Of a stretch of 64,000 nt of DNA, positions 43,161 through 61,353 are shown piece by piece. The stretch is taken from positions 672,001-736,000 of the forward strand of contig OY969559.1 in assembly GCA_963701075.1 (NCBI GenBank), in the 5' to 3' direction. The DNA comes from an uncultured Nitrososphaerota archaeon. GTDB lineage: Archaea; Thermoproteota; Nitrososphaeria; Nitrososphaerales; Nitrosopumilaceae. The first letter of the stretch is position 1. Every line of letters begins with the position of its first letter. Under the pieces are notes generated by a model. It searched no databases, was not told the DNA's origin, and saw nothing but the letters and a program-made list of their open reading frames with translations. Position numbers and translations under genes: made by a program.

Positions 43161-43230
43161 ATGTCTTGTTTTTCTCAAACCGTCTATCAAGATTTAAATG
43201 TCCCCCAAAGAGATCGAGTTTAAAAAAGGT

Positions 43231-43689: not shown

Positions 43690-43695
43690 TGGATA

Positions 43696-44133
43696 ATGGC
43701 AAAATCACCCCTTGGTCTATTTGCAGGAAGAGTTCTTAGAGATAAAAGAAAGAGACAAAGATGGTCTATTGGAACTTACAAGAGAAGACAACTCGGACTG
43801 GATAAAAAGGCAAGCCCTCTTGGAGGAGCGCCTCAAGCCCGCGGCATTGTACTGGAAAAAGTAGGAATTGAAGCTAAACAACCCAACTCTGCTGTGAGAA
43901 AATGTGTACGTGTTCAACTCATAAAGAACGGTAAGACTGTAACTGCATTTCTTCCAAAAGACGGAGCGCTAAATTTTGTTGATGAACACGATGAGGTGCA
44001 CGTAGAAGGAATGGGTGCATCTATGGGTGGAGCAATGGGAGATATTCCTGGAGTAAGATGGAAAGTATTCAAGGTAAACGGCACTTCACTTAAAGAACTA
44101 GTTTACGGTAAGAAAGAAAAACCGAGAAGATAG
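43696..44133 (+). CDS. rps12: 30S ribosomal protein S12
   Basis: [15 protein letters not shown] and GDIPGVR motifs. Confidence 0.97.
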
Positions 44134-44135
44134 AA

Positions 44136-44735
44136 ATGACTGAAACACAGAATCTTTTACTTTTTAGAAAATGGGATACCTCCAAAATTGAGATTAAAGA
44201 TCCAGGTCTGAGAAATGTCATCTCGCTAAAAAAAGAGATAATCCCAATATCCTTTGGCCGTTCCGCACTGAAGCGATTTAACAAAGCTGAGGTCAACATA
44301 ACTGAGAGACTTGTAAACAAGTTATCTCATTTTGGAAAAAAATATGCAAAGAACACTGGCAGAATGGGTGGAAAAAAGATTCACGCTATAAATACAGTCA
44401 AGACGGCATTTGAAATCATGCATCTTAAAACAGGAAAGAATCCTGTTGAAGTCTTGATAAGAGCAGTAGAACACTCAGCTCCAAACGAAGATACTACAAG
44501 AATAGTTTACGGTGGAACCGTATATCATGTTTCAGTAGATGTTGCTCCTCTTCGAAGAATTGATCTTGCTCTTAGATTCATAGCAGAAGGGGTAAGGGAT
44601 GCAACATTTTCAAATCCAAAGGCGATAGAGGAAAACCTTGCAGAGCACTTGATACTTGCCGCTGCAAACGACATGAACGCACCTTCTGTTAAAAAGAAGA
44701 ATGAGTGAGAAAGAATTGCAATGGCCTCTAGGTAG
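44136..44735 (+). CDS. rps7: 30S ribosomal protein S7 (in-frame TGA at 44706-44708, probably a base-call error)
   Basis: VDVAPLRRID motif. The frame continues NE*ERIAMASR*, matching the conserved S7 end. Confidence 0.94.
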
Positions 44736-44755
44736 AAGAGTTTTAAAAAATAAGA

Positions 44756-44859
44756 TAGCCCGAGGCAGATTCGAACTGCCGTCTCCAGGTGTCCTCTCGT
44801 AAGATCCAGAGCCTGGAATCCCTAGCCCAAAAATTGTTTGGCCACTAGACTATCGGGCT
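44756..44859 (-). tRNA. tRNA-Gln(CTG) with two introns (~16 nt in the D-arm, 15 nt at 37/38)
   Basis: Reverse complement: AGCCCGA-TA-GTCTAGTGGCCAA[ACAATTTTTGGGCTAG]GGAT-T-CCAGG-CT-CTG-G[ATCTTACGAGAGGAC]A-CCTGG-AGAC-GGCAG-TTCGAAT-CTGCC-TCGGGCT-A, giving a 73-nt mature tRNA. Confidence 0.9.
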
Positions 44860-44887
44860 ACCAAAACGAGTGGTATAAGTTGAGAAT

Positions 44888-45325
44888 ATAATTATTAGGT
44901 TTTACGGTCTGTCCTACGCCTGTAAAGTCAGAAACACCCTGACATTACACCTGACATTATGATTTCAACTGATTTTAAACAGTTTTCATTGAAATAAACT
45001 GTTTAAACTCAGTTCATGATTTTAAACTAAAAATTTGAACTAGTTTAAACGCACGCACGAAATTTGTTGAAATGTACTTTAAACACTTTTTCTACACTTT
45101 CATGAGTAGAAAATTTGTTTAAACTTGTTTTTCTACGAGTAGAAATGGGCAAGAAAGAGTGTATCACCTGTTTTCCAATCTGAACTGACTTTAAACACTG
45201 TTTAGCACTTTAAACTTACGGCTAATACTTTGAACTTGACGTTAATCTGTAAACTGTTCATGAATTTAATTTTAAACTAGCAAGTGTAATTTTTGACGCA
45301 CGAAATTTAGAAAAAACAGGAAACT
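44888..45325 (+). repeat. Left non-coding palindrome-rich element (inverted homologue of 58350-58765)
   Basis: 45227-45280 matches the reverse complement of 58396-58449 at 44/54 positions without gaps. GCACGCACGAA and paired GACATTA motifs are shared. Confidence 0.85.
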
Positions 45326-45501
45326 AGGAAAGTCGTGCGTAAGAAACTAGGAAAAACTAAGAAATTGCTATGTGAGAAGATGATGGTGTTACTAGATAGT
45401 TTCCTAGTTTGGAAATTTCCAAACTTTCCTTGGAAAGTTTCCTTGACAGGAAAAATTCATGCCAACTTGAAATTATGGAAAGGTACAAGTCAAGAAAGTC
45501 C

Positions 45502-45939
45502 CTAGTTTTCCATCATACAATTATTGATATGGAAGGTATCTAATACCAATCCCAGTCGTGCTGTCAAGTGATAATCATATGTCAGATGGGGCAAGCGAAC
45601 ATTTTTCCCTACTCCAAGACACTCGAAATCTTTGTGTGTTGCTAGGCGTCCCAACAACAAACCTGGCACGTTTGTGTGTGGAAAGCCTCTTAACTTTTCA
45701 TGTTGTGTTTTGTTTAGATCGCCCATGGCAATAGACGCATAGCCTATAACATTCACATTTTTGTAGACAAACACCCATGTTTGAGCAATCATATTCCTTT
45801 GGTCATCACATGCTTCTTTTTTGATATAATCTTCATAGATTTTATTACTACATTTGAAATCCTTGATATCGAATAGATTTTCTTCTAAACGATAAACCTC
45901 AACTTCCGTATCTAAATTAATTGAAGTGACTTTAGACAT
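45502..45939 (-). pseudogene. GNAT acetyltransferase toxin (TacT/AtaT-like), C-terminally truncated near 45600
   Basis: DFKCSN..YEDYIK and VPGLLLGRLATHKDFECLGVGK motifs, after which similarity stops in all three frames. Confidence 0.75.
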
Positions 45940-45949
45940 GAAAAATTAA

Positions 45950-46093
45950 TTATCTATGTACTTTTAACTTTGATCCGCTTTTCACGGCATCTTGAATTAT
46001 CCTTATTTTTTCTGAGGTTGGTTCTTTCTTAAGCTCCGCTACAAATTCGCTCCATTCTTCATTATCCAATGGTTGGACTTCTCGCAATGCCAT
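45950..46093 (-). CDS. 47-aa putative antitoxin (resembles the DUF1778 C-terminal half)
   Basis: MALREVQPLDNEEWSEFVAELKKEPTSEKIRIIQDAVKSGSKLKVHR*, ending 10 nt upstream of the GNAT start. Confidence 0.6.
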   Translation of the reverse strand: MALREVQPLDNEEWSEFVAELKKEPTSEKIRIIQDAVKSGSKLKVHR

Positions 46094-46755
46094 GTTACTA
46101 ATATGTATACATATTATTTGATTTTTGTGTAAATAGTATACTGTATACTGTACTTGGATGCATTTTGTATGGCAAACTTACCTATGTGTCTTTTTCGATA
46201 ATCAACCATTTACCTTCTGCTTAATGGTTAGGCAATTGAAAGGTGTTTTACTCTGACTCGTCAAGAGGGCATAGATGAGGGCAATATTTGAAAAATTCTC
46301 TCATTTCCTGATCATAGATGTCTTTTGGTATGGTGGCCATTCCTTTTCCATCTAAAGATGGTTTAAAACGCATGATGTATTCTTGTCATAACGATTACCT
46401 CTGTATTTTTCCAACATTTTTTGAGTGAACATGTTGAGCATATGAGTTTGTTGGTCATGTTCTGCTTGGATTTTACGCATCAAGTCATCAATCATGACTG
46501 TTATTTTGGTTTCGAAATTGATAAGGTTTGTTGCTAATTACAAAATTCGAATTCAAGGGAAATAATGAATCATAGAATAGGATAAAGATCCAATGCGACG
46601 ACGAAGAAAAAATAACGGAATATCTGAAAATGAGGTTGAGGTCGGTGGAGTGATTGAAGTGGATCTTAGACAGTTGACTGCACAGGATGAAAATTAATCC
46701 AATAACTTAACTTAACTGATATAAAATTTAACTAGAGGCGATCCTTACAGAAAAT

Positions 46756-46878
46756 ATGGATGGTGAGTATACATGTGGCTGTTTCGTCTGCGGGAAATTA
46801 TTCTTTGAGGAAGATGATTGCACGGAACATATGCAAACGGAACACGGCGGTAGAAGAAAGGATCAGCCTAACTTTTGA
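46756..46878 (+). CDS. 40-aa C2H2 zinc-finger microprotein
   Basis: MDGEYTCGCFVCGKLFFEEDDCTEHMQTEHGGRRKDQPNF*, with the pattern CxxC-x3-F-x8-H-x4-H. Confidence 0.7.
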   Translation: MDGEYTCGCFVCGKLFFEEDDCTEHMQTEHGGRRKDQPNF

Positions 46879-46879
46879 A

Positions 46880-47167
46880 TCATATGTCAACACCATTATA
46901 TCTTCTACATAGCCAAGTTTTCCTTTCTTGAACGATGTTAGACTTTGATGATTTCGAAGGATCTGGGTATTCTAATTTTAATATTCTATGTTTTGAATCA
47001 AACGCCATTTTTAGTAGTATTAATGCCCCAACTCCCATCAAAAATAATCCAGAAAGAAATAGACTACCAATTGCACCTGTAGTATCATTTTGGTACCTGA
47101 GTACAATCGTTGAAACAATCATACCAAAACCAGTGGCAAGTACAGCAGCTCCAACCGCGGTTTCCAC
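46880..47167 (-). CDS. Small membrane protein (2 TM); may be the frameshifted C-terminus of the PH-domain ORF
   Basis: Two hydrophobic helices; the frame is open upstream into the end of 47191-47541. Confidence 0.5.
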   Translation of the reverse strand: METAVGAAVLATGFGMIVSTIVLRYQNDTTGAIGSLFLSGLFLMGVGALILLKMAFDSKHRILKLEYPDPSKSSKSNIVQERKTWLCRRYNGVDI

Positions 47168-47190
47168 GCCTGAGCGTATTCCTTCAATCG

Positions 47191-47541
47191 TTAAGCGTTT
47201 TTGAATCTAAATATTTTTTCTCCTACATCTTTTGGAAAATTGTCTACCTCGACATTATCTGAAAGAAATCTCATCTTTGGTATAACGCCGGATCTGATTA
47301 TTCCTCGCTTTAGATGTACATTTGCAATGTCTGTATATCTATAATCTTCTAGATTTTTTCGCAAACCTAGGGTAGTAGGTCTTTTCACTATTACTCGTTG
47401 AGAAGTAATAAAGATAGTTTCTGGATTTATCAGCGAGGCAGATCTATCTGTCTCTGCTGAAAGTAGAACTTTCTCATTGAATTGCAATAATCTCTTGACA
47501 TCATCTGGTACTTCGATTTCCTTTCCAGTAAAGAAACTCAT
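47191..47541 (-). CDS. Bacterial-type PH (bPH) domain protein
   Basis: EKVLL, IFITSQRVI and YRYTDIANV pattern. Confidence 0.72.
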   Translation of the reverse strand: MSFFTGKEIEVPDDVKRLLQFNEKVLLSAETDRSASLINPETIFITSQRVIVKRPTTLGLRKNLEDYRYTDIANVHLKRGIIRSGVIPKMRFLSDNVEVDNFPKDVGEKIFRFKNA

Positions 47542-47611
47542 TTGCTGGCTATCTCAGTGCATAGTAATAGAAAAGGGTTAGGGTAGTATTTTGGCAGTTT
47601 TGATAAATTTT

Positions 47612-48991
47612 TCAACTGCATGTGTAAGATGCTACAAGATTCACATTCTTTGTCGAAATCGTCGAGTAGGCATTGGACAATATCAGATAGTATTGTCCGG
47701 AAGACAGACCAATGTTCAATGTCCCTAAAGCTACCTTGCCGCTATTGTAATACGTATAGGGAGAGCCACCTGACTGGAACTGCCTAAACCCAGTAGAATC
47801 AACCACATATACAATGATGTTATTTCCAAGTGAGGCTTGTGCAGAAAACTCTCCGGTTACAGTTCCAGAACACTGCATGTTAAATGGAATGTAGGTATAG
47901 GTATGGGGACCAACCTGATACACAGAATTTGCTATGAGAAAGCTAGGCACTTGAGAATTGGAAGGATTGGGGTTGATTGCACTGACTGGATTTTTTTGTC
48001 CTGCTAGTTCTAGTTGTTGTGATAGAGATGGGTTTTGGTTTGATGTCAGAGTTGATTGGTATGCATTTACCTGAATTGAAATATCTTCACTTCTTGCGCT
48101 AGAATATCCAGAACCTCCTTGGAATATTGCATAGATGTTGGCAGTGTTGCTAGTTGCAGGCTTTGTTGCAGTCCAAGTCACACTAAACTGGCCATTTGAA
48201 TCAGTATATGACGAACCTAAAATTACATCTGGAGCAAGGGTGATGTCTCTTTGAACATCAACCGTCTGGTTTAGAATGCCGTTACCATTTGAATCGGTTA
48301 ACCGTCCTGAGAATGTCACTGTTTGACCTTGTGAAACAGTATAAGCTGATGACTGTATGTTGATGCTTGTCCCTACTAATGGAGAAGACGGGTTAGAGTT
48401 GTTTGAATATCCTGAATTCTGTGAGCTTCCAAAAATGTGGCTTTTCAATTCATTAACTACATTTACTTGTCTTGTGGATTCAAATGGTACTGGAACAGAA
48501 AGCCCCAAGAAGTTAAAGTATGCAGTACCGCTTACCTTGAAATTTATCACGCCGCCAGATTCTACTATTGAAGCAACAGCGGGTTTTATGCTGCTAAACT
48601 GAATATCCTGGTTGTCCTCAATGCTTTTTGTTTCGCCCGGATTGATTGTTTCGTCTATGTGACTCTGGCCTTGTCCCACCTTTACATCATTTATCAAGAG
48701 ATCATATGATACATCTGGGATGTAGACTGGAAAAAATCCATGGTTACTTAGAGCAAATCCTAGTCCCAGTTTGACTCCAGTTATCAGATCAAGTGCAGCC
48801 CCAAGCCAATTTTGCAATAGAGCATTGATACCTGCTTTAACAAGGGATCCTTGAGTTAGGGAGACGTCAAGACTTTGATATGATATGTTTTCAAGACTGA
48901 TCTGAATCTGAGTATAAGAATATGCAATCAGGCCAAGTATAATTCCAACAATTGCTACAGCTATGATTGCAGCAATAACCCCCGTCTTCAT
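47612..48991 (-). CDS. Membrane-anchored multidomain protein (LEA-2/WHy-like + Ig-like + GOLD-like)
   Basis: N-terminal TM; SNHGFFPVYIPDVSYDLLIND; VTFSGRLTD...TDSNGQFS; YYNSGKV...GQYYLILSN. Confidence 0.7.
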   Translation of the reverse strand: MKTGVIAAIIAVAIVGIILGLIAYSYTQIQISLENISYQSLDVSLTQGSLVKAGINALLQNWLGAALDLITGVKLGLGFALSNHGFFPVYIPDVSYDLLINDVKVGQGQSHIDETINPGETKSIEDNQDIQFSSIKPAVASIVESGGVINFKVSGTAYFNFLGLSVPVPFESTRQVNVVNELKSHIFGSSQNSGYSNNSNPSSPLVGTSINIQSSAYTVSQGQTVTFSGRLTDSNGNGILNQTVDVQRDITLAPDVILGSSYTDSNGQFSVTWTATKPATSNTANIYAIFQGGSGYSSARSEDISIQVNAYQSTLTSNQNPSLSQQLELAGQKNPVSAINPNPSNSQVPSFLIANSVYQVGPHTYTYIPFNMQCSGTVTGEFSAQASLGNNIIVYVVDSTGFRQFQSGGSPYTYYNSGKVALGTLNIGLSSGQYYLILSNAYSTISTKNVNLVASYTCS

Positions 48992-49091
48992 GCCTAGTTC
49001 ATTCCGGTACAACTAGATAAATAAGATCATAATTCAAATCTAGAGAAAATCTACAGTTTTTCAAAGATTCTTGCTATGAGAAATGTCACAA

Positions 49092-49361
49092 TCACTTTCT
49101 TGAAAATGGAGCAAGTGATTTTTCTCTCAACCCAAAAATTAGAATTGGTATTCCAATTATTACTATACAAAGAGAAATCAAACGGAATAATAGCCAATTT
49201 GAATAATTGCCAGAACATTCGTGAGATGTAAAAGGTTGAGTAGAATCTATCTGACAAGTTGGAATAAACATGTGTAACACCAGCAAATTATTCTGGGGTA
49301 TGGACAAAATCGAGCCAACAACAATCATTGCAATGCCTGCCACAACTTTTAGTTTATTCAT
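49092..49361 (-). CDS. Small 2-TM membrane protein with a Cys pair in the loop
   Basis: Two hydrophobic helices flanking TCQ...HECS. Confidence 0.6.
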   Translation of the reverse strand: MNKLKVVAGIAMIVVGSILSIPQNNLLVLHMFIPTCQIDSTQPFTSHECSGNYSNWLLFRLISLCIVIIGIPILIFGLREKSLAPFSRK

Positions 49362-49489
49362 ACTCTCAACTAGAACAATTTTTGATAATTAGGTTTGTGG
49401 AACAATCTTACAGTGGGAATCTACACCAGTTTTTTAAAGTTTGAAAAGTGGATAATTATATATTTTGAGACCTCCGGGAAGTTATTACG

Positions 49490-49900
49490 ATGAACCCATC
49501 CGAACAAATTGACAAACGGATCGCAGAACTAGCAGATTGGCGTGGCGATGTGCTTGCCAAACTTCGTAAAATCATCCATGATGCTGATCCAAAAGTGATC
49601 GAGGAATGGAAATGGATGGGAACCCCAACCTGGTCGCATGATGGGATATTCGTGATAGTAAATGCGCACAAAGACAAGGTGAAGATGACTTTTTCTCACG
49701 GCGCAAGTCTTCCAGATCCCGAGAAGGTCTTCAACGCGGGACTAGATGGTAACAAATGGCGCGCGATCGATTTCCATGAGGGCGACAAGATTAATGAACG
49801 TGCTTTGAAAAATTTCATCCGCTCGGCTATTGCGCTCAATACTGCTGCCTTGAAAAAGAAAACTTTCAAGACCCGACCTAAAGCAAAGAAAAAATCGTAA
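49490..49900 (+). CDS. DUF1801 (YdhG-like) protein
   Basis: LADWRG, EEWKWMGTPTW and GASLPDP..FN motifs. Confidence 0.88.
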   Translation: MNPSEQIDKRIAELADWRGDVLAKLRKIIHDADPKVIEEWKWMGTPTWSHDGIFVIVNAHKDKVKMTFSHGASLPDPEKVFNAGLDGNKWRAIDFHEGDKINERALKNFIRSAIALNTAALKKKTFKTRPKAKKKS

Positions 49901-49944
49901 CTAGGGCGGTTAAGCAAAAAGATAATTACTAAATCATAAGGCTT

Positions 49945-49980
49945 ATATTCCTATAAAGGAATATTCCTGTAGAGGAATAT
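49945..49980. promoter_or_regulatory. Two overlapping palindromic operators ATATTCCT-N4-AGGAATAT
   Basis: Located at 49945-49964 and 49961-49980, directly upstream of the ArsR start at 49988. Confidence 0.8.
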
Positions 49981-49987
49981 TAAATTC

Positions 49988-50347
49988 ATGAAAGCTACCC
50001 TAAGTGCATTAAGTGTACTGGCAGAACCTAATCGTTTACATATTGTTGAACTTTTGCGTGATGGGCCACGACCAGTTGGAGATATTGTCAATAGACTCCG
50101 ATTACACCAACCACAAGTCTCCAAACATCTACACGTGTTAAGTAATGCTGGATTAGTCGAGATGCATCCAGTTGCGCAGCAACGGATCTACAAACTTCGT
50201 CCAGAACCACTCAAAGAGTTAGACACATGGCTGGAATCATATCGTAGCATTTGGAATGAGAAACTTGATCGACTGGATGATTATCTTATCAAACTACAAG
50301 AAAATGAAATGAAACAGAGAGGAAAGAAACATGGCAGAAAAAAATAG
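49988..50347 (+). CDS. ArsR/SmtB family regulator
   Basis: LAEPNRLHIVELL and QPQVSKHLHVLSNAGLV motifs. Confidence 0.92.
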   Translation: MKATLSALSVLAEPNRLHIVELLRDGPRPVGDIVNRLRLHQPQVSKHLHVLSNAGLVEMHPVAQQRIYKLRPEPLKELDTWLESYRSIWNEKLDRLDDYLIKLQENEMKQRGKKHGRKK

Positions 50348-50849
50348 TACCAACACAGGAACATCGGATAGAGAACTCACTATCACACGAATATTTGATG
50401 CTCCACGTGAGCTAGTGTTCAAGGCTTGGACTGACCCAAAGATAATTGCAAAATGGTGGGGTCCAAGAGGCGTAACAAATCCTGTTTGTGATCTGGCTGC
50501 GCGACTTGGTGGCTCTATCCACATTGTTATGTTGGCAGGTAAAGACCTTGGCGACCTAGAAGGACAAAAGTGGCCCATGAAAGGAATCTTCAACGAAATC
50601 ATTCCGCCCAAGCGCATTGTTTTCACCTCTTCTGCAATAGAGGATGAAGACGGCAACCCACAACTCGAGAATAAAGTTACAATAATGCTTGAGGATTTTG
50701 GAGGAAAGACGAAAATGATACTACATATAGTCGTGACCAAGGCAGGGCCGGGAACAGAAGGACCGCTTTCTGGAATGGAGATGGGCTGGAATCAGAGCAT
50801 CGATAAGCTCGGGGAAGAGCTGGGAAAACGCGTTATTAGCACAGGTTGA
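50331..50849 (+). CDS. SRPBCC/AHSA1 domain protein
   Basis: ITRIFDAPRELVFKAWTDP...WWGP and GWNQSIDKL motifs. Confidence 0.92.
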   Translation: MAEKNSTNTGTSDRELTITRIFDAPRELVFKAWTDPKIIAKWWGPRGVTNPVCDLAARLGGSIHIVMLAGKDLGDLEGQKWPMKGIFNEIIPPKRIVFTSSAIEDEDGNPQLENKVTIMLEDFGGKTKMILHIVVTKAGPGTEGPLSGMEMGWNQSIDKLGEELGKRVISTG

Positions 50850-51029
50850 AAACTCTACTTAACGTATAAAAATACTAAAGGAGTTTTTCAGCCTTCAAAG
50901 GCATAGGTTTAGGGAGTTTAAGAGAGTTTAAAACAGGCTTAGACTTTTGTCAGAGATAAAAAAAGCAGTTTGGTTGCAAATATCTTTATAATTTAGATTG
51001 TTAATCCGGTACCTAAACAGGAATATGAT

Positions 51030-52383
51030 ATGTCAACTGATCCAATAAAACATGTTATCGTACTCATGCTTGAAAACAATTCCTTTGATCATATTCTTGG
51101 ATCACTAACCAAGATAAAAAAAATTGATGGAGTGCAACCAAATTTACCATCCACTAACAATTATGCTGGGAATACCTACAAGCAAACAGCTGACAACTCT
51201 CCGATAGTTTCTCCAGATCCAATGCATGATCTCAAAGATACTCTAGCCCAGATTGGAACCGACGACAAGGGCAACGAGATGGGTAACTTTGTTGAAAATT
51301 ATTACGAGTCCTTCAAAGACAAGCCCCAGCCTGCACAGCTCGGGCAAGTTATGAATTATTATTCATTTAACAGCCTGCCTGTACTGCATCAACTAGCTAG
51401 TCAATTTACGATATGTGATCATTGGTTCTCTTCCATGCCTGGACCCACATGGCCAAACCGCCTCTTTGCCATGTCAGGCACTTCACTTGGGAGGGCAACA
51501 ATGCCATCAGGTATAATGGATCTCAGTCTTCACTTTTATGATCAAACCACAATATTTGACCGCCTTGACGAGAAGAAATTAACTTGGAAAGTATACTTTG
51601 GGGATATCCCAGTCTCGTTGGTTCTGGCCCATCAGTGGGAGCCACAAAATGCTGTTCGCCATAGGCCATTGCTCGAACTCTACGATGATTTCAAAAAAGA
51701 ATCAGAAGTGCCAAATTTTGTTTGGATAGAGCCAAGCTACATGCCGCCTACAGCAAACGATTACCATCCTCCACACAATGTTTTTCGTGGAGAAAAACTT
51801 GTTGCAGATGTCTACAACGCTTTGCGCGCAAACGAAGAACTTTGGAACTCTACTCTCTTTGTAGTGTTATTTGATGAGCATGGGGGCTTTTACAATCATG
51901 TCACACCCCCGCAAGCAACTCCTCCGGACAATAATAGCAAAGAGTGGACTTTTAATCAACTAGGTGTGCGGGTCCCTGCAATTCTTGTCTCTCCATGGGT
52001 TGGAAATGGTGTAATATCAGACACCTTTGACCACACAAGTCTGCTCAAATATTTGACAGACAAGTGGGGGCTAGGGACACTTGGAGCGCGGACAGCCAAT
52101 GCAAAAAGTTTTGCCAGTGCGATTTCATCTACATGCAGGCCAGATACTCTAAAACAACTAACAGTTCCATCTTTTGATGAAACCCAAACCATTCCAGACG
52201 AGCTAACAGAGCATGAAAAAGCCATGGTCTCTCTTTCTAAGGTACTGGAATCAAAGGCAGGAGAAGATGACAGTGTAATTGCCCAACGCAGCAAGCAGAG
52301 CTCAAAAAGACCTGTCTGGACAGATTGATGCAGCCTTGAGCCGTGTACAAGGTTTTCTTAGCCACCAAGCCTTCAAAATTTAG
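51030..52383 (+). CDS. Phosphoesterase / phospholipase C family protein (probable frameshift near 52300)
   Basis: IKHVIVLMLENNSFDH, PGPTWPNR, DEHGGFYNHV, GVRVP and DHTS motifs. An alternate frame ends QIDAALSRVQGFLSHQAFKI*. No signal peptide. Confidence 0.88.
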
Positions 52384-52481
52384 TGGCTCTATCCGGTACA
52401 ACTAGATAAATAAGATCATAATTCAAATCTAGAGGAAATCTACGTCACTTTTTTTAAGCATTAATTTTAGAATCATAACAA

Positions 52482-52918
52482 ATGAAACACGCAGACTTGC
52501 AATAACATTCATCATAATAGGTTCTTTTTTTGGTATCGTTTTTGCCTTTACACAACAAGCAAGATATTCGTATCCGGCTCCAGAACCTACAACAATGTGC
52601 AAAACAGTACAAAACATAGAACAGGCATTGGTATCTTTTACTGTTGACAAAGCAAAAGCAATTTCTATTGCAAAAGGCAGCATGGAATTTGAAAAAAATA
52701 CCGCAGGATACAATGTAGAAAATACCGAAGTACAGGTGCCCTTTAGTTTTAACGTATTTAGCTGCTCATTTCCTCGTATAGAAAATGTATTTGTGGGCTT
52801 TCTTCTCAGTAATGGAACACAATCGCATGTCTTGCTTTTGCAAGAAGACCCTTCCCTCGGTGGGGTTGACGCAATAGAACAAGTTCCAGTTGGTCAATAT
52901 GGATTTTTCAAACAATAG
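52482..52918 (+). CDS. Membrane-anchored hypothetical protein (probable 1-nt deletion just after the ATG)
   Basis: Adding one A gives MKTRRLAITFIIIGSFFGIVFAF in frame with ORF 52595-52918. A TATA-like TTTTTAAG lies ~25 nt upstream. Confidence 0.6.
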
Positions 52919-52930
52919 GATATGCCAAAA

Positions 52931-53542
52931 ATGAAGATTCCATATCTTACAATAGTTTCAGTAACTACCTTGGCAATCACCATTTCAGTCTATGTTTTCC
53001 TTCTTATCCAAAACGAGCCAATACAACCACAGCAATGCTCAGAATCTCAATTAACCAATTGCATATCCAGTTTTAGCATGGAGATAGACAACGAGAGCAA
53101 AAATTATCATAAATTTCAAGTCATGGATACAGTAAACAAGCCAGTAGAATTTGACGGCATAAAATTCGTATATGCTGGCACCAGTACGCCTAGCACTGAC
53201 GGCATAAACTGTGATGCCGTATTTCCAAGGGCAATAAACTCAACCTTGGGTCACCACCCTCCAGAAATTGTAAACTATGGCGGATACTTCAAAATAAACG
53301 AGACTCGGCACTTTACTGCTACTTTTCCAAATGGCCAGACAAAATCCCTTACGCTGTGCTGGAATGGTAATGCAAGAGCAAAGGTTACGCAGATGATAGA
53401 TTCTGGCCTGGGAATAGGTCCAATGTTTTGTCCTTCAAGGACAAGTTGGTTTGATGATAACAAGACTGCCGGCATAATTCAAGATGAATACTGTTCTTCT
53501 GACAGTCCATATTATGACAATTACATTGCGGAGGTACGATAA
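52931..53542 (+). CDS. Secreted Cys-rich hypothetical protein
   Basis: MKIPYLTI leader, TM segment, six Cys. Confidence 0.72.
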   Translation: MKIPYLTIVSVTTLAITISVYVFLLIQNEPIQPQQCSESQLTNCISSFSMEIDNESKNYHKFQVMDTVNKPVEFDGIKFVYAGTSTPSTDGINCDAVFPRAINSTLGHHPPEIVNYGGYFKINETRHFTATFPNGQTKSLTLCWNGNARAKVTQMIDSGLGIGPMFCPSRTSWFDDNKTAGIIQDEYCSSDSPYYDNYIAEVR

Positions 53543-54781
53543 ATGAAAACTCTACATCTTGCAATAATTCTAGCCAGCACATTTCTACTCCTTACACTTG
53601 GCACTCACAATACATTTGCATCACAGGAATTTATACTGTCATCTCTTCCAATTAATCTCAGTCCAAATCCTCCGGTGATGATAGATCAAGTAGAACTTGA
53701 CAGTGCATTTGCATTATTTCCTGATAATCAAACATGTTATGACAAGCCAGGATTTGCCAACAACTATACTTGTTCTACAAATTTGGTTCCAGGCCACAAG
53801 GTTCAATGCGCATATTTTATTGGCAGTAGCTACTGTGAACCCATACATCGATACACCAGCGGTACAAGACAGACATGCCTTGATCTAAATACCATTCAGA
53901 ATACACCTCAATGGTTTGATATGTACAATACGCAAAACAAGACAGTACAGATACAATTGTTTGCGCTCACAATACATCAAGGAACAAGACCATGGGGACA
54001 GCAAGGGATTCCTCCTGCCGTGATTAGTCTTGGACCATATGAAAAATGCACATACACATTTAATCCCGTAGACGAACCTCTCTCACTTGACCAGACAAAC
54101 ATGTCTACGGTAATATCGTACACATATGGTGCAAAGAACTATACCGTATCAACACCCGAGCTGACTGACATACAAAACGATAGCAGGACATGGCAACTTG
54201 ACGGAAACAAGTGGGTTTTTGCAGAACAAAATACGGTGCAACCTCCAGAGATTCCAATCTTGCCACTACAGCAACTCAAGTCAGGAATACCTATAGAGTA
54301 CATACAGTGCAAACCTCCTCTCGTACTGTTTCTAAAACAGGAAGATAAATCTCCTGCCTGTCTTACCCTTGATACGTCAGACAAGCTGCAAAAGATCAAG
54401 TGGCTTGCCCAGCCTCCATACCGTAACATCATTGTCAACAAGACAAGAGATCTAGTCACTTCAAGTCCAACTTTTGAGACTTTTGGAATCAAAAGCACTC
54501 TTTTTGTAGACAATGACTTTACATGCATCTTGACAGAACCACTGCAATGCACCAGCCAGGCCTTTTTTGATGGGGCTCGCCCCGGTTATGGCAATGGGAC
54601 AAATCCGCTTGTTCCTGTAAATACAATCATCCATCACAATGTGACAATTCTGACAAATAATACAAATCATGTAGAATGTGCAGTAATTGATGGACTCTGG
54701 GATGACCTAAACCAGAAACCACTTGAGAAAAATGATCCGATTTGTGGATATCTGTATGGATTCAAGGGAGGGTTGCCGTAG
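53543..54781 (+). CDS. Secreted protein with central SPLKQ-type Cys module
   Basis: MKTLHL leader; LPLQQLKSGIP...C...KQEDKSPAC...KW. Confidence 0.8.
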   Translation: MKTLHLAIILASTFLLLTLGTHNTFASQEFILSSLPINLSPNPPVMIDQVELDSAFALFPDNQTCYDKPGFANNYTCSTNLVPGHKVQCAYFIGSSYCEPIHRYTSGTRQTCLDLNTIQNTPQWFDMYNTQNKTVQIQLFALTIHQGTRPWGQQGIPPAVISLGPYEKCTYTFNPVDEPLSLDQTNMSTVISYTYGAKNYTVSTPELTDIQNDSRTWQLDGNKWVFAEQNTVQPPEIPILPLQQLKSGIPIEYIQCKPPLVLFLKQEDKSPACLTLDTSDKLQKIKWLAQPPYRNIIVNKTRDLVTSSPTFETFGIKSTLFVDNDFTCILTEPLQCTSQAFFDGARPGYGNGTNPLVPVNTIIHHNVTILTNNTNHVECAVIDGLWDDLNQKPLEKNDPICGYLYGFKGGLP

Positions 54782-54783
54782 AA

Positions 54784-55722
54784 ATGAAAACTCTACATAT
54801 TTCAATAATCATATTGATTACAATCGTAATTGTGGAGATTAATACGAATGCGTATGCAACGTGTGCATTTACAGGTCTGGATAAAAAAGAGATCTGTGTG
54901 AACGGTAATCTACTTGATATTTCAGCACAAGGAGAAAATGATAGATGTGTTGCAGGACCGGGAATGTCGTGCCCAATAGCAAATATTGAATCGCCATTAA
55001 CGCAATTCAAATCAGGTATTGCAGCAAAGAATGTGGCATGTGCCAATGATCTTATGCTAGTTATCAAAGCAGAGGATAATTCTCCGGCATGTGTAAAATC
55101 TGATACTGCCCAGAAATTGATGGAAAAAGGTTGGACAAGAGAGGTTGTCACATCAAACTTGGATGTAGACTCGTCATGTAATGGAACCACAATACTTTCC
55201 CCAAACTATCACGCAATGATGTTTCCAGTTCTTTTGATGCAGCCAAACTCAACCTCATGTGTAAAATTGACTTATACTGTTATCAGACCTTATGGCGTGT
55301 ATGAAGATAGTGTAAGCTGGCCACAAAATGAGACCATTCCACTTCAGATAAGCGATCTAAACTATGAAGGTAATGCTAACGAGTTTGGAATAACTCAAGG
55401 AAAAGACTATACAAATTCATTCAACATTATTGCATTTCCAAAAATAATTGATCATGCAAATTATCCTGTAGGCTCTAACTTTACAGTAACTTATCTAATT
55501 CGACCTCTGCCAAACGCAACTGGCTTTTACGACCAATCAATACCAATGCCTCTCTGTTTTCGGTATCCTCTTGCAGTAGGACATACTGCAGAGCAAGTAA
55601 ACTCGTCTGATTTCTCAAAGGATCTATTCATTATGTTGAATCACTCCTGCATGAGAGGACAAGATGAACTTGTAGGAGTAGAGGTAAAGGGCATGAACTA
55701 CACTGAGATGAAGCTTCCATGA
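54784..55722 (+). CDS. Secreted protein with SPLKQ-type Cys module
   Basis: MKTLHI leader; SPLTQFKSGI...C...KAEDNSPACV...KGW. Confidence 0.8.
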   Translation: MKTLHISIIILITIVIVEINTNAYATCAFTGLDKKEICVNGNLLDISAQGENDRCVAGPGMSCPIANIESPLTQFKSGIAAKNVACANDLMLVIKAEDNSPACVKSDTAQKLMEKGWTREVVTSNLDVDSSCNGTTILSPNYHAMMFPVLLMQPNSTSCVKLTYTVIRPYGVYEDSVSWPQNETIPLQISDLNYEGNANEFGITQGKDYTNSFNIIAFPKIIDHANYPVGSNFTVTYLIRPLPNATGFYDQSIPMPLCFRYPLAVGHTAEQVNSSDFSKDLFIMLNHSCMRGQDELVGVEVKGMNYTEMKLP

Positions 55723-55750
55723 TCTGCCAAAATTTACTGGATATTGCAAG

Positions 55751-57163
55751 ATGAAATCTCTATCTTTCTTAATAATTGCAATTCTGGTACTTTTCACACT
55801 GCTGTACCTCAAACCGATACAGGCAGACAGCACAGGTAACATCGAAATACAAGACATCAAAACTCTGCCTACTGCAGTTATCATTGGACACACGTTCAAG
55901 ATTAACGCGACCCTTGTCAACAACTCGATAAGCCCGATATCTGTTGAACATGGCCCCTGTGAAGCCCCGTTCTCTGCAACTTTTGATAGTCATGTCCTAG
56001 TCAGGATGAATAACATAACATGTACGACTGACATGGTCTTGCAAAAACTAGACCCCGAAGAAAAAATCACGGCCACCAGTCCATACTTGGATGTCGCCTA
56101 TGTGGCTTCACAACCAGGAACAGTAAACGCAACCGTAACATTCCGATATTCGATATGGGATCAAAATAACCAGTCAAACGTCGAGGAAAAAGTTTCAGCG
56201 CCATTTTCATTTAACATAAATCCTATGACCCAAGTGTCACCACTGGAACCATCTGAAAATAATGATAATTCTTTTGTGCTAAATTTCGAATCTGTAAAAG
56301 AGAGATATCTGACACTAATCAACGCAACAGAACTCAATCTTGTCATAACTAATAGTTCAGAGTTTAAGGAACAGGTACAAGGATACAACTATAGCTTTGC
56401 AGAAGCAATATCTAGACTTGGATATGATAAAAACAACAGCTATACGGTGTGGCCTGTAGATGTCGTATATTCTCTATATCACTCTGACTTGTATGACTAT
56501 GACAAGACACTGGTTGTTACAATGGATTCAAACTTGAATATGCTTGGCACTACAGAATACAATCCTTGGAATGTGCCGCCTGGCTATCCACGTCCTGCAA
56601 TGAGTCCACTCTTCATACATGGAAACTATGCCCCGCCGAAAATTGATATCAACAAACTGGTAAATCTCATACCACCTTCTCCGCCCGAGCAGGTAAAACA
56701 TGGAGTAGCTCCAAACGATGTTAACTGTCTTGCTGGTTTTGGATTGATCTTCAAGCAAGAAGACAGATCACCTGCTTGCGTCAGTGATAATACTGGCAGA
56801 TACCTCGCAGAACGTGGATGGGCAATAAATCAGACTCAAGAATCAATCATTCTGGCAGAGGACCATGGAGAAGATGATATGAACAAGAATGGAACAATAA
56901 CTGGAAAAAATACGATTGACATAAACATAAAAAATTTCCAGATTCTCTCTCCACCTGTTACTGTTGAAATCTTTTATTCAAATGGTACATTGTATGAGAC
57001 TGATGAAATATCCTCAAATAGCATTCAACCAGGCGGCTATTACAAATACACTTTTACAGTCTCATCTACAAATGCAAGTGATGTCTTTGGCAAATACCGG
57101 GTGGATGTAGAGCACAATGGCAACAAGGCAGAGACATTCGTTGAGATTTTAGTACCACCTTAG
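55751..57163 (+). CDS. Secreted protein with SPLKQ-type Cys module
   Basis: MKSLSF leader; SPPEQVKHGV...C...KQEDRSPACV...RGW. Confidence 0.8.
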   Translation: MKSLSFLIIAILVLFTLLYLKPIQADSTGNIEIQDIKTLPTAVIIGHTFKINATLVNNSISPISVEHGPCEAPFSATFDSHVLVRMNNITCTTDMVLQKLDPEEKITATSPYLDVAYVASQPGTVNATVTFRYSIWDQNNQSNVEEKVSAPFSFNINPMTQVSPLEPSENNDNSFVLNFESVKERYLTLINATELNLVITNSSEFKEQVQGYNYSFAEAISRLGYDKNNSYTVWPVDVVYSLYHSDLYDYDKTLVVTMDSNLNMLGTTEYNPWNVPPGYPRPAMSPLFIHGNYAPPKIDINKLVNLIPPSPPEQVKHGVAPNDVNCLAGFGLIFKQEDRSPACVSDNTGRYLAERGWAINQTQESIILAEDHGEDDMNKNGTITGKNTIDINIKNFQILSPPVTVEIFYSNGTLYETDEISSNSIQPGGYYKYTFTVSSTNASDVFGKYRVDVEHNGNKAETFVEILVPP

Positions 57164-57165
57164 AA

Positions 57166-58335
57166 ATGAAAACGCTACATCTTATCGTAATTACAATTCT
57201 AGGAGTTGCCATTGTTATGGGCAGTAATGTCGTATCTGCACAGGCTGAAACAACGGTTTCTCCGCTAAAACAATTCCAATCAGGAATACCAATTTCGAAC
57301 ATACAGTGTGCGCAAGACCTTTCACTTGTCATCAAGGCAGAAGACAAAACTCCGGCCTGCATCAACCAAGACAGCATTTCAAAGCTCATACTACGTGGTT
57401 GGCTAAGTACAACATCTTCTCTTGGCCAAAATAATACAATTTTTGGCAACTTTTATCAAGGAATAGAAAATGATTCCGGAATTGTATCCATCAAGAACCA
57501 GACTTATTACATGATGACTGTATCAAACACCACTTATCCAATAGTACATGGCATGACAGTAAAATTCCATCAGGTAACTTTCTCATTTCCATATGGCGCA
57601 CAAGCTACGCCGGGAGGCATCATCATTCCTTTTGACATGACATTCCCAGACGGTACCACGGAAACATATGGAAACGTTACAAAGAATCCAGACGGTTCTG
57701 GTTCTATCTCAGGTATATCGCTTGGTCCCGGGCCATCATCAAACAGGACTGTTACGGTTCAAAGCGATCACATGCATCATCAATCTGGTGTAACCCTGAC
57801 AGAAGATCAGGTAAAACTCCTAGTTAGTACAGATACAACGACCATACAAACACAGACACCTGAAAACCATACATTACCTGCCTCGTTTGAGCCATGTGAC
57901 ACACCTTTTCCACAAAATTATACAGGGATACCAATCTTGTACATGCAGCAAAACTCGACAGCGAAAATTTGCGTAAGATACCACAACCTCAATGACTTTG
58001 CAGCCCAGGCAGGAATCAGAGTCTCTGATGCAGGCAACCTGACTGGAGAGGCAACTGCGATCTCAACTTGGAGTGACTCGGAAAACAACCAGATACCTCC
58101 AAATCAAGACCTAACAATTGTATACTGGATCAAGACGGGAGACAAGGCAGGATTTTATGGACTGACAATATTTTGTGCTCCGATGCCTTTGGTTGTGGGA
58201 TATGACAACAATTCTACCATAACTGCAAGTGATTTTCCATGGTTTGGCAAGCAGTTTGAATGCCCAATGGGAACATATGATTATCATATTGACAGCACGA
58301 CTGGGATTGGAGTAAAATACATGCCAGTGAAATAA
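57166..58335 (+). CDS. Secreted protein with N-terminal SPLKQ-type Cys module
   Basis: MKTLHL leader; SPLKQFQSGI...C...KAEDKTPACI...RGW. Confidence 0.8.
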   Translation: MKTLHLIVITILGVAIVMGSNVVSAQAETTVSPLKQFQSGIPISNIQCAQDLSLVIKAEDKTPACINQDSISKLILRGWLSTTSSLGQNNTIFGNFYQGIENDSGIVSIKNQTYYMMTVSNTTYPIVHGMTVKFHQVTFSFPYGAQATPGGIIIPFDMTFPDGTTETYGNVTKNPDGSGSISGISLGPGPSSNRTVTVQSDHMHHQSGVTLTEDQVKLLVSTDTTTIQTQTPENHTLPASFEPCDTPFPQNYTGIPILYMQQNSTAKICVRYHNLNDFAAQAGIRVSDAGNLTGEATAISTWSDSENNQIPPNQDLTIVYWIKTGDKAGFYGLTIFCAPMPLVVGYDNNSTITASDFPWFGKQFECPMGTYDYHIDSTTGIGVKYMPVK

Positions 58336-58349
58336 TGTAATGAAAAATT

Positions 58350-58785
58350 ACGGTTCCTAATTTTTTGGCAAACTTTATGTGTCCAAATTAACACTCTGGT
58401 TCAAAATCATGTTCATGAACAGTTCACAGGTTAATGGCAGGTTCAAAGTGTGAACCATGTTCAAAATTAAACTCATGTTCACAAGTTGGCAAGCTCTTTT
58501 TTTTTGAACCGTTTTTCATATATGAATTAACACGAGTTAACAAAACATTTTGTGCCTAGTGAGTCTAACTAACATAGAGTTAACAAACTTCGTGCGTGCA
58601 TTTTAACATGTTAAAAATTTGGTTCAAAATATTGTGAGCTAAATCTTAACATGTTAATTCTTGTTCAAACTGGTTAAATCATGTTAAAATTATAATGTCG
58701 CACATAATGTCATCTTGAATCGGACATTATACGAACGAAATCGAGGTAAAAAAGCTTTAATTATTGTGTAGCAATCGGACATTAT
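58350..58785 (-). repeat. Right non-coding palindrome-rich element (inverted homologue of 44888-45325)
   Basis: TTCGTGCGTGC at 58589-58599; palindromes at 58601-58616 and 58646-58657; AATCGGACATTAT twice (58718, 58773). Confidence 0.85.
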
Positions 58786-58867
58786 TGGAACAAAAAATAA
58801 CAGAATACAATTTTATCATGAACAATGTTTACGAATGCATAAATACATTAAAACCAAGTCTACGTAA

Positions 58868-59764
58868 ATGAAAGTCATTTTATTTTTAGGGTTTGTAGCA
58901 ATACTCTTTTTCGCAGGTGCAATGTTTGCAACTCAAGCCAGTGCACAGCAATATCCATCGCAGTCCGGACAACACCAATTCCAAGGAACGCGTACCCCTG
59001 TAAATGGCACAACATATACCAACGCTAACTATGGAGTTCAAGTGGCAATTCCAGATGGATGGAGTGGCTCTGAGATAAAGCGAACTACGGGAGCTACATC
59101 TGTAACTTTAGCACCGGGAGGATTTCAGTCAATGCAAGGAGGACAGCGTCCACCAGTTACTATATCTATATCCGTGATACCAAAAGGCTCTACACCATAT
59201 ACTCCACACTTTATGCCAAGAAATATGCAAGATGGTGAAACGTGTACCAATTCTACATCAACACAGACTTTTAACAGCTTGAACTTTAATGAAGTAATTG
59301 TAGAATGTAACGGAACTGTGGATATGAAGTCCCAGTATGAGATGACCCAGACAGACTCGGCCTATATTACACTTGGACTGAGGGCAAGCCCATCATCTGG
59401 TTTTGATTCTCAAGTTACAACCTTTGATACCATGCTTGGGACATTGCAGATTACAAACGCATCTCAGAATACCGTAACTCCATCTCAAAGCATTGTAATT
59501 CCGTCGTGGGTAAAGAAGAATGCTGGTTACTGGGCAACAGGTCAGCTAGGTGATTCTGATTTTGTTTCAGGTATGCAGTATTTAGTTCAACAAGGAATAA
59601 TGAAAATACCATTATCGACATCAGCATCAAATTCTTCATCTCAACAAATCCCATCTTGGGTAAAAACAAATGCTGGTTGGTGGGCCAATGGACAAATATC
59701 TGATAGCGACTTTGTCAAAGGAATACAATATCTTGTATCAAACGGCATAATGAAAATATCATAA
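58868..59764 (+). CDS. Secreted protein with tandem thaumarchaeal IPSWVKxNAGWW C-terminal repeats
   Basis: Signal peptide, PsbP-like core (YGVQVAIPDGWS), two IPSWVK...DSDFV.G.QYL repeats. Confidence 0.8.
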   Translation: MKVILFLGFVAILFFAGAMFATQASAQQYPSQSGQHQFQGTRTPVNGTTYTNANYGVQVAIPDGWSGSEIKRTTGATSVTLAPGGFQSMQGGQRPPVTISISVIPKGSTPYTPHFMPRNMQDGETCTNSTSTQTFNSLNFNEVIVECNGTVDMKSQYEMTQTDSAYITLGLRASPSSGFDSQVTTFDTMLGTLQITNASQNTVTPSQSIVIPSWVKKNAGYWATGQLGDSDFVSGMQYLVQQGIMKIPLSTSASNSSSQQIPSWVKTNAGWWANGQISDSDFVKGIQYLVSNGIMKIS

Positions 59765-59873
59765 ATCAAATCCCAACAAAACATTATCTCAGTACTTTGA
59801 TTAAATTTTGTTTATATCATGTCAGGAATCTGAAATATGATGTAATATTAAGAGAGTTTGATTACTGTTTAGC

Positions 59874-60887
59874 ATGTCTCAGCATCAAAAAACATTTCAG
59901 CTAACATCCAACTTGAAAATTTGCCGTATTCTAAACGGTATGTGGCAAGTATCAGGAGGTCATGGTCAAGTCAATCCAGAATCTGCTATATCTGATATGT
60001 TCTTGTATCATAATTTCGGTTTTACAACATGGGACATGGCAGACATTTATGGTCCTGCAGAAGAATACATTGGTGAATTTAGAAAAAGACTTGCAAAAAA
60101 TAAAGGAGAGGCAGAACTTGATACCATGCAAGCACTAACAAAATTTGTTCCAAATCCAGGACCAATGACTAGAACCATAGTGGAACACTACATAGACAAG
60201 TCAATTCGTAGAATGAATGTAAAGACAATCGATGTAGTACAATTTCATTGGTGGGACTATAACGATACAAGATATCTTGATGCATTACATCATCTTTCAA
60301 AGATTCGTGATGAGGGAAAAATAAAACATCTCGCGTTGACAAACTTTGATACAGAAAGAATTGAGATCATGATAGAAAATGGATTCAAACTAGTATCAAA
60401 TCAAGTACAATATTCTGTGCTAGATCAGAGACCTGAAGTCAAAATGACTACATTTTGTCAAAAACATGGAATAAAACTATTGACGTATGGAACTCTGCTT
60501 GGTGGACTTTTGTCTGAAAAATATCTAGGTAAACCAGAACCGTCCAGATCTCAGCTTGATACGCCAAGTTTGCAAAAATACAAAAACATGATTGATGCAT
60601 GGGGTAGTTGGAATCTATTTCAGGATCTACTTGTTGTACTTGATGGTATATCCAAGAAACACCATGTTAGTATTGCAAATGTTGCTACAAGATACATCCT
60701 GGATAAACCTGCAGTAGCAGGTGTAATAATTGGAGCAAGATTGGGTATTGCAGAACACAAATCCGATAATGTGAGAGTGTTTGAATTCCAACTAGACAAA
60801 GAGGATAGTGACGCCATAAAATCAATAACATCAAGATCTAACAACCTGTTTGAAAGAATTGGAGACTGTGGCGATGAATATAGATAA
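59874..60887 (+). CDS. Aldo/keto reductase
   Basis: LNGMWQ, DMADIYG, QFHWW and NQVQYSVLD motifs. Confidence 0.92.
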   Translation: MSQHQKTFQLTSNLKICRILNGMWQVSGGHGQVNPESAISDMFLYHNFGFTTWDMADIYGPAEEYIGEFRKRLAKNKGEAELDTMQALTKFVPNPGPMTRTIVEHYIDKSIRRMNVKTIDVVQFHWWDYNDTRYLDALHHLSKIRDEGKIKHLALTNFDTERIEIMIENGFKLVSNQVQYSVLDQRPEVKMTTFCQKHGIKLLTYGTLLGGLLSEKYLGKPEPSRSQLDTPSLQKYKNMIDAWGSWNLFQDLLVVLDGISKKHHVSIANVATRYILDKPAVAGVIIGARLGIAEHKSDNVRVFEFQLDKEDSDAIKSITSRSNNLFERIGDCGDEYR

Positions 60888-60994
60888 ACCATCAAACAAG
60901 AATCAGAGTGTAGACAAATCTAAGATTATTTTCACATAATTTGTTATGATCGTACCTGAGTCAATAAAATCAAAATTAAGATCTGCGACTAACC

Positions 60995-61315
60995 CTATTT
61001 TGTACTAGCTTCACGAACAGCCATTGCATAATCGCAATCTGCTTTAAGCCTCATGTATGGAATGAGTCTGTAATGAATGGAATACAGATCTTTTTCCTTG
61101 TACAATATTCCCTTTAGCAAAAGTGAGACAAATCCACCAGCTATGCGTGATGATGGAATATTTAGCTCCTTGCATACCTCATCACGTTTTTTCTTGTATT
61201 GCTCTAAAGTAAAACTGATATTATTTATTTCAAGAATTAGGGGCCACATGACTTTTTCCCACACTAATCTTCTGTTTTGTGTTGCAGAAGCATATTTCCC
61301 CTTCTGGCTTAACAT
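60995..61315 (-). CDS. Conserved hypothetical protein (winged-helix-like)
   Basis: 106-aa basic ORF divergent from the YkgJ gene. Confidence 0.6.
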   Translation of the reverse strand: MLSQKGKYASATQNRRLVWEKVMWPLILEINNISFTLEQYKKKRDEVCKELNIPSSRIAGGFVSLLLKGILYKEKDLYSIHYRLIPYMRLKADCDYAMAVREASTK

Positions 61316-61353
61316 TGATAACGTTCAAAAGTCTATTCTTAATTTATTGGTTG

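Follow-up and report, generated by a model that had tools for sequence, protein, structure and literature searches.

How does a block of accessory genes come to lie next to conserved ribosomal-protein and RNA-polymerase genes when it carries no recombinase of its own? The question is raised by the window analysed here, a stretch of 64,000 nt (positions 672,001 to 736,000 of contig OY969559.1) from the genome of an uncultured Nitrososphaerota archaeon, which we label G000 (one contig of 1,915,938 bp, 38.6% G+C). The block, hereafter the island, is bounded by two non-coding elements that are homologous and inverted with respect to each other, L on the left and R on the right; further to the left lie rpoA', L30e, NusA, S12 and S7. 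An original prediction had taken L and R for the ends of a non-autonomous mobile or invertible element mobilised in trans, or else for two copies of a cis-element family such as an origin, partition or recombination site. Our analysis suggests that L and R are probably diverged copies of one and the same attachment arm, the A-arm, of integrative elements that encode a tyrosine integrase and occur in its genus of ammonia-oxidising archaea, and that the island is a decayed composite of two such related elements.

The inverted, colinear homology of L and R (Table 1) was recovered by independent means, as had been predicted. MAFFT aligns 44880-45340 colinearly with the reverse complement of 58340-58800, and BLASTN against the entire genome returns three colinear inverted blocks (E 7e-14, 5e-12 and 4e-10). 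Local alignment of L with the reverse complement of R scores 74, whereas 500 dinucleotide-preserving shuffles gave a mean of 14.2 (standard deviation 2.0, maximum 25), which corresponds to a z of about 30 and is far from what shuffled sequence yields; L and R aligned in the same orientation score 13. Globally, 283 of the 391 positions aligned are identical (72%). The proposed anchor, GCACGCACGAA(A/G)TTTGTT, is present at 45051 and within 58582-58620, and the proposed inner block reappears as the inverted arms 45220-45280 and 58396-58456 (61 nt, 79% complementary). BLASTN finds no third copy in the genome; both existing copies stand at the borders of the island, and none is scattered through the core genome. 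The homology also continues into coding DNA, where 45513-45600 matches 58254-58343, the 3' end of the last of five paralogous genes, at 76% over 90 nt; the two coding extensions have TYDYH in common, after which the frame differs. The expectation that the elements lie at the cargo edges can be sharpened, since L and R mark the exact ends of an inserted, recombinase-free accessory block. Between them no open reading frame (ORF) matches an integrase, transposase, Cas1 or PolB, and no recombinase, replication or virion gene was detected with Pfam, NCBIfam, PHROGs or PADLOC; in particular, Pfam, NCBIfam and PHROGs give no PF00589 or other recombinase in 44897-58757.

Each arm abuts a copy of the same short sequence, TAATTATT, which we call the core. 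Within 44000-61000 it occurs twice only, at 44889 and 58758, the exact borders of the island, and genome-wide it occurs 112 times on the plus strand, about once per 17 kb of the 1.9-Mb genome. The core is nearly symmetric, ATAATTAT being a palindrome. It also adjoins A-arms at unrelated loci in two related genomes, G018 and G072, and a variant, AATAATTATT, stands beside the A-arm of a third, G078. The insertion target in the window is the promoter of a tRNA gene which, folded manually, looks like tRNA-Gln(CUG) with two introns; ARAGORN in default mode and Rfam both missed a tRNA at 44754-44867, and ARAGORN with introns allowed reports a doubtful tRNA-Pro(AGG) at 44754-44860. Of the 63 genomes of the genus, 58 have conserved both gene and promoter, and with the two as a probe we read on past the promoter in 30 loci. 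In 10 of these the core joins the ancestral neighbour gene directly, which is the unoccupied site that the original prediction had suggested looking for. A short B-arm (GACATTAT plus GGAAC) follows the core in another 10, a variant or other sequence in eight, and one contig ends there; an A-arm follows it in a single locus, that of G000. Both in the 10 unoccupied relatives and in those with only a B-arm following, TAATTATT is present in single copy.

Comparison with these relatives also orders the layers on the far side of R. The sequence at 58766-58800, immediately beyond the right core copy, is the sequence found directly after the core in relatives without the L-to-R block. The genes for a 298-amino-acid protein and an aldo/keto reductase that come next are missing from the ancestral site in 10 relatives and form an older layer whose far border is eroded; the ancestral neighbour gene is located in the window only from 60997 onward. 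From the junctions and the relative loci, the order is therefore tRNA promoter, core, L to R, core, B-arm remnant, 298-amino-acid protein gene, reductase and ancestral neighbour. Where the L-R block is absent, the simplest arrangement, a core followed by the B-arm remnant and then the reductase, is seen in G019 and G070, both unpublished genomes, and published genomes in which a B-arm follows the core are G068, G077, G062, G001, G053, G063 and G008. Two further arrangements were noted at this site: in G013 (G013:C204, 120-280) two B-arms are arranged head to head about a perfect palindrome of 16 nt with the core inside it, and in G068 (G068:C3) two B-arms in tandem follow the tRNA core. Each resembles a scar left by recombination that took place repeatedly at the core.

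The A-arms share a modular build. About 22 nt inward from the core lies the M unit, which is about 23 nt long and includes ATAATGTC; it is accompanied by two GACATTA sites in the opposite sense, short-word arrays that vary between elements, a block of the GCACGCACGAA type, iteron-like units and an inner dyad block. M units, which contain ATAATGTC or GACATTAT, are repeated and occur in B-arms as well as in A-arms. In L the GACATTA motifs are at 44941 and 44953 (plus strand), together with arrays of the word TTTAAAC, the block GCACGCACGAAATTTGTT (45051), iteron-like CAYGAGTAGAAA units and the inner dyad block (45220-45280); in R they are at 58693 and 58705 (minus strand), with TTGAAC/GTTAAC word arrays and the block GCACGCACGAAGTTTGTT.

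The arms belong to a family that is linked to one type of integrase. We built a sequence-only model, R1, of the first 100 nt from six end modules, and regarded an A-arm as strong if its R1 E-value was below 1e-10. BLASTN and R1 together find matches in 17 of the 63 genus genomes, strong in nine including G000, which alone has two strong A-arms; the other eight have one strong copy each. A PF00589 tyrosine integrase family (about 430 amino acids) is present in nine of the 63 genomes, namely in all eight non-G000 genomes with a strong A-arm and in a ninth that has only a fragment with an in-frame stop. The integrase adjoins the B-arm in G008, G072 and G075, and the proteins of G008 and G072 are 42% identical. 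Across the order, 18 of 401 sampled genomes have an integrase match of E 1e-20 or better, most of them about 31% identical and in another family. G000 itself has no homologue or fragment of this cognate integrase, inside the island or elsewhere (tblastn with four family integrases, nothing below E 0.5), and none of its four other PF00589 genes, at 565, 980, 1238 and 1773 kb, is homologous to the family.

Complete relatives that code the integrase (G008, G072, G075, G071 and G078) show what an intact element looks like: core (TAATTATT or a near variant of it), A-arm, variable cargo, integrase, short B-arm, core, with arms of about 450 bp (A) versus about 110 bp (B). The elements of G075, G072 and G071 occupy one other chromosomal site, with both ends on one contig, the A-arm at one end and the integrase and B-arm at the opposite end. 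Both orientations occur at this site, the A-arm being on the left in G075 and on the right in G072 and G071. Between G075 and G072 the flanks are 87-90% identical, and the integrase-B-arm segment is 92% identical but inverted, with breakpoints at the cores; the remaining cargo differs. At the tRNA site itself, G008 has the core followed by a B-arm, a 436-amino-acid PF00589 protein, a CRISPR array together with type I-B cas genes, and its A-arm abuts the ancestral neighbour of the tRNA on another contig. In detail, G008:C25 2890-11480 carries the array with type I-B Cas4, Cas1, Cas6b, Cas3, Cas5 and Cas7 beside the integrase. In the unpublished genome G069 the integrase is likewise next to the tRNA, and R lies at the same place as the A-arm in G008 and G069. 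Cargo of the complete relatives includes CRISPR-Cas, parts of type I restriction-modification systems, a Dam methylase, HamA, SbcCD-like proteins, AAA_5 and a transporter, and no replication protein was found in it. A simple in-place inversion relating G000 to G069 was considered and rejected; the cargo is mosaic, with the 466-amino-acid membrane protein alone in common.

The family is also tied to island borders elsewhere. When the surroundings of 11 further members were compared with G000, the conserved gene content shared with G000 was seen to end at the module, with accessory genes taking over from there, in at least six (G011, G002, G070, G069, G075 and G078); the flanks are mixed in G018 and G072. 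The proposal of a cis-element family thus holds as far as this tie goes, with a recombination site that accumulates cargo as the version nearest to our findings; the origin role comes without an initiator gene. An exact scan for double GACATTA motifs returned 18 stretches in the genome_contigs set, of which 17 are in bacterial records and are presumed chance matches. The eighteenth is a 10,691-bp Nitrosopumilales contig that matches at the same place as G018:C45, and the two are probably one record. Two further stretches in viral_contigs have no BLASTN likeness to the L/R elements and were set aside. Beside the A-arm of G011 lies a DUF5655 gene, and the corresponding place in G000 (G000:C1, about 621,580-621,900, outside the window) is taken by a G+C-rich, non-coding, structured-looking stretch, possibly an RNA gene.

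How might such an island have formed? We propose that the integrase would recombine a near-palindromic, AT-rich core of 7-9 bp in the element with the same sequence in the chromosome, the crossover falling inside the core, and that the chromosomal target would be a promoter-like spot, here the TATA-box region of a tRNA gene. The M units are candidate protein-binding sites that the integrase would bind, and the remaining word arrays of the A-arm may serve accessory factors. Near-symmetry of the core would remove the directional cue and so allow insertion in either orientation. Two related elements could then have been stacked at one core in opposite senses, or the proximal one could have flipped in place, and later loss of the central integrase-B-arm region would leave a double-A island. 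In its present state the island (44897-58757) has an A-arm at each end and neither a B-arm nor an integrase inside. Since R sits where the A-arm lies in G008 and G069, L occupies the place in which the B-arm and integrase would be expected, and because G000 is without a cognate integrase, the island now appears to be fixed. The head-to-head B-arm/core/B-arm palindrome of G013 is of the kind that a two-element history predicts. The original prediction was right that these are real island ends, and has to be revised as to their nature, which is probably that of an integrase-driven element with asymmetric arms and not of transposon-like terminal inverted repeats (TIRs). Its idea of mobilisation in trans finds no partner in G000, where the candidate integrase is missing and no cognate homologue was found.

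Several points weigh against this reconstruction. Searches by motif, tblastn and R1 found no remnant of an internal B-arm, core or integrase in the island; the layout varies, with the integrase of G078 beside the A-arm instead; and a two-element history is one among several possible paths. The roles given to the M units and the core are predictions from sequence. The genomes are kin, so that the count of A-arms co-occurring with integrases, which does not amount to a formal test, overstates independence. Unpublished genomes underlie the co-occurrence rows of G011 and G069, the G069 orthologue of R and the G019/G070 layout. Moreover, the homology of L and R reaches into the 3' end of the adjacent gene, which would also fit an old local duplication; such a coding extension was not seen in the other family members examined, no systematic test having been made.

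That last point leads to the alternative that L is no second element at all, and instead an old inverted duplication, within the lineage, of the R unit, that is, the 3' end of the last WING-49 gene with the arm downstream. The homology does run 90 nt into coding sequence on both sides, and what stands on the left is the tail of a dead gene, joined out of frame to an acetyltransferase that is truncated. What speaks against it is that L adjoins a copy of the core precisely, as expected of a product of integration, and that its end and inner blocks are nearer to arms in other genomes than to R. Over its first 95 nt, L shares 66% identity with the copy in G011, 65% with that in G075 and 58% with R, differences that are small and measured over a short length; the inner block is 80% identical to G069 over 90 nt, 81% to G002 over 57 nt and 74% to R over 97 nt. 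L thus appears closer to the arms of other genomes than to R, which argues weakly against a recent local duplication, and we regard the duplication as quite unlikely. The window taken by itself would suit a non-autonomous, transposon-like element with L and R as TIRs, TAATTATT as target-site duplication (TSD) and a transposase acting in trans. Its inverted arms extend as far as the junctions, the block stands between direct repeats of 8 bp, and the interior is devoid of a recombinase. The family does not fit such a transposon. An identical or almost identical core is seen again at independent sites (G018, G072, G075 and G078), which makes it a specific sequence and not a duplicated random target, and other members pair one A-arm with an unlike B-arm plus a tyrosine integrase. 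The genome holds two copies only, with arms merely 72% identical where near-identity would be expected, and no transposase is associated with them; this explanation is very improbable.

The two remaining alternatives concern what the arms do. The interior of the A-arm might, in addition to its attachment role, be a replication origin or partition site of an excised, plasmid-like form, as repeated units of the CAYGAGTRRAAA type and short words in the A-arm, four tandem 19-nt repeats in G072, and the folding of L as single-stranded DNA (better than shuffles, z -3.45) would suggest. The cargo of G000, G075, G072, G071, G078 and G008 holds no replication or partition protein, and the arms are not a chromosomal origin; an origin of that kind at the island was rejected, with the Cdc6 genes at 371 and 1179 kb, at a great distance from the window, and an uninformative GC skew. 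The additional role is rather unlikely. That L and R encode a structured non-coding RNA, in favour of which one could cite their conservation as non-coding stretches of about 450 nt that have dyads inside them, is extremely unlikely. Rfam returns for 44000-60000 one microRNA match at chance level (E 0.75), and what is conserved consists of short words and palindromes that occur in both orientations, as is typical of protein-binding DNA. Covariation, which had been put forward as a check for such an RNA, was not convincing in the consensus fold of the six end modules, which has 8 pairs with one compensatory change and a covariation term of -0.5 kcal/mol.

Integration of two elements remains our preferred account of the locus. 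In contigs from four soil-metagenome DNA runs placed on 43000-61500, both island junctions are bridged in the arrangement of the window only. The junctions of inversion or excision at L or R that the original prediction had proposed to look for are absent from the contigs of all four runs, which drop rare variants and would not show rare forms. A recombinase, as a recombinase-driven invertible segment would have close by, is missing from the vicinity. Other differences from the window were noted. In runs X3 and X4 a contig joint links 53569 to 57870 and skips 4300 bp among the paralogous secreted-protein genes; it reflects either a variant with a deletion between paralogues or an artefact of assembly. 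In all four runs the contigs depart in the same way from the window at 52298 (one base deleted, close to the phosphoesterase gene's 3' end), 44706-44707, 51894 and 61378-61379, and the three covering runs differ from it at 58471 and 58564-58565. These shared differences may be consensus errors of the assembly.

Table 1. Features of the island and its insertion site, in window coordinates.
Feature	Coordinates	Strand	Evidence or remarks
Intron-bearing tRNA gene	44754..44867	-	TATA-box region is the insertion target
Left core copy, TAATTATT	44889..44896		Overlaps tRNA promoter
L, A-type attachment arm (probable)	44897..45340	+	Alignment; model R1 83.7 bits, E 4.8e-25
M unit of L	about 44912-44934		
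L-only non-coding stretch	45341..45501		GGAAA/TTTCC word repeats; no R counterpart
Chimeric 145-amino-acid ORF	45502..45939	-	N-terminal part of acetyltransferase fused to a tail with homology to the gene beside R (its 3' end)
Left and middle cargo	45950..52918	both	ORF and domain searches
Five tandem paralogous secreted proteins	52922..58335	+	WING-49 (NCBIfam) in 4 of 5; last (57166-58335) ends beside R
R, second A-type attachment arm, inverted (probable)	58336..58757	-	Alignment; model R1 70.8 bits, E 4.9e-21
M unit of R	58718-58740		
Right core copy, TAATTATT	58758..58765		
B-type arm remnant	58766..58800	+	M unit 58773-58795; weak R1 match 58773-58815
Older inserted layer: 298-amino-acid protein and aldo/keto reductase	58868..60996	+	Ancestral neighbour resumes at about 60997

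The cargo itself is varied. Residues 20-113 of the chimeric ORF next to L match PHROGs phrog_1758 (E 2.1e-14, profile positions 18-119 of 184), the acetyltransferase being truncated. The left and middle cargo encodes, on the minus strand, a bPH protein, a LEA_2/Big membrane protein of 466 amino acids and small ORFs, and on the plus strand a DUF1801 protein, an ArsR-family regulator, an AHSA1/SRPBCC protein and a phosphoesterase of the PLC/acid phosphatase family. A 52-nt direct repeat, 98% identical between 49003-49054 and 52392-52443, brackets the DUF1801/ArsR/AHSA1/phosphoesterase module, and its first copy overlaps the start of the gene for the 466-amino-acid protein; the repeat may have arisen by recent duplication of a promoter or be a scar of recombination. 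A 32-nt imperfect palindrome within 49934-49991, which lies immediately upstream of the gene for the ArsR-family regulator and gives a weak, chance-level R1 match, is probably the operator of that gene.

Our reading of the locus has several consequences: (i) Growth of a variable block by site-specific insertion. The block beside the ribosomal-protein/RNA-polymerase operon in these soil ammonia oxidisers would have grown by repeated insertion at one promoter core. (ii) A signature that outlasts the integrase. Core, M units and A- and B-arms would delimit such islands in draft genomes even after the integrase has been lost, and integrase-based surveys would miss islands such as that of the window. 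(iii) A concrete test for archaeal tyrosine recombinases. That elements occupy one attachment site in both orientations, and that the core is almost symmetric, provides such a test, and to our knowledge very few of these enzymes have been studied outside hyperthermophiles and halophiles. The island appears inert, so its practical weight is moderate. It is conceivable, as a speculation that we hold to be rather unlikely, that the near-symmetric promoter core is a landing pad at which one integrase family inserts, stacks and flips elements in either orientation, and that the A-arm, once an element is excised, also serves its replication or partition. Double-A islands would then be cassettes without an integrase, still open to inversion, excision or exchange in trans by a visiting element; this would be an archaeal version of recombinase-mediated cassette exchange, by which islands of defence and surface-protein genes are built up in successive layers.

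Among known systems, the attachment sites of the lambda type (attP) have a short AT-rich crossover core, long unequal arms with repeated protein-binding sites, and an integrase gene beside one arm (see also PMC8371274). The family described here resembles them in a core flanked by unequal arms with repeat units and in an integrase adjoining one arm. It differs in arms that are longer on one side (about 450 versus about 110 bp), in a nearly symmetric core and in the two orientations found at one site, and protein binding is here a prediction. TIR/TSD transposons, miniature inverted-repeat transposable elements and casposons are alike in their inverted ends at the junction and short flanking direct repeat. 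They differ from the island, which has no transposase, Cas1 or PolB and two copies only, and whose family has the same flanking repeat at independent sites and complete relatives with unlike ends and a tyrosine integrase; for casposons in particular, neither the Cas1 casposase nor a family B polymerase is among the island ORFs (Pfam, NCBIfam, PHROGs, PADLOC). In Thermococcales, a mobile-element integrase has been proposed to cause chromosomal inversions besides integration, according to the part of PMC5495485 considered; that case concerns a different archaeal order and integrase family, and an inversion in the window is hypothetical.

The closest comparison is with the cryptic integrated elements (CIEs) of Thaumarchaeota. 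As described in the available parts of PMC6563490 (Krupovic et al. 2019), these have tyrosine integrases and short attachment (att) sites down to 8 bp, and intergenic targets, tandem re-use of sites and cryptic elements carrying CRISPR are also reported (PMC6563490; PMC8371274, in the portions considered). The present family shares with them integrase-defined islands of a few to tens of kb whose cargo varies and may include CRISPR-Cas, att repeats of very small length, targets that are intergenic or linked to a tRNA, and the use of one site more than once in tandem (PMC6563490, same portions). Unlike CIEs, the island of the window is without an integrase, is bounded by two long inverted arms, and lies upstream of a tRNA promoter and not in the 3' part of a tRNA gene. 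Direct core repeats, an unoccupied site and arms homologous to integrase-bearing elements are all present. The island fails to qualify by its missing integrase, which defines a CIE, and carries the arms and cores of such elements. In the literature considered, which includes PMC6563490 in part, we did not find a description of the A-arm/B-arm architecture, a symmetric core in a tRNA TATA region, a two-orientation site or a double-A derivative, and the supplementary att tables of that paper may list the family. The kind of element is already known; what is new in detail is how its arms are built, that its core is nearly palindromic and that two A-arms can bound one island.

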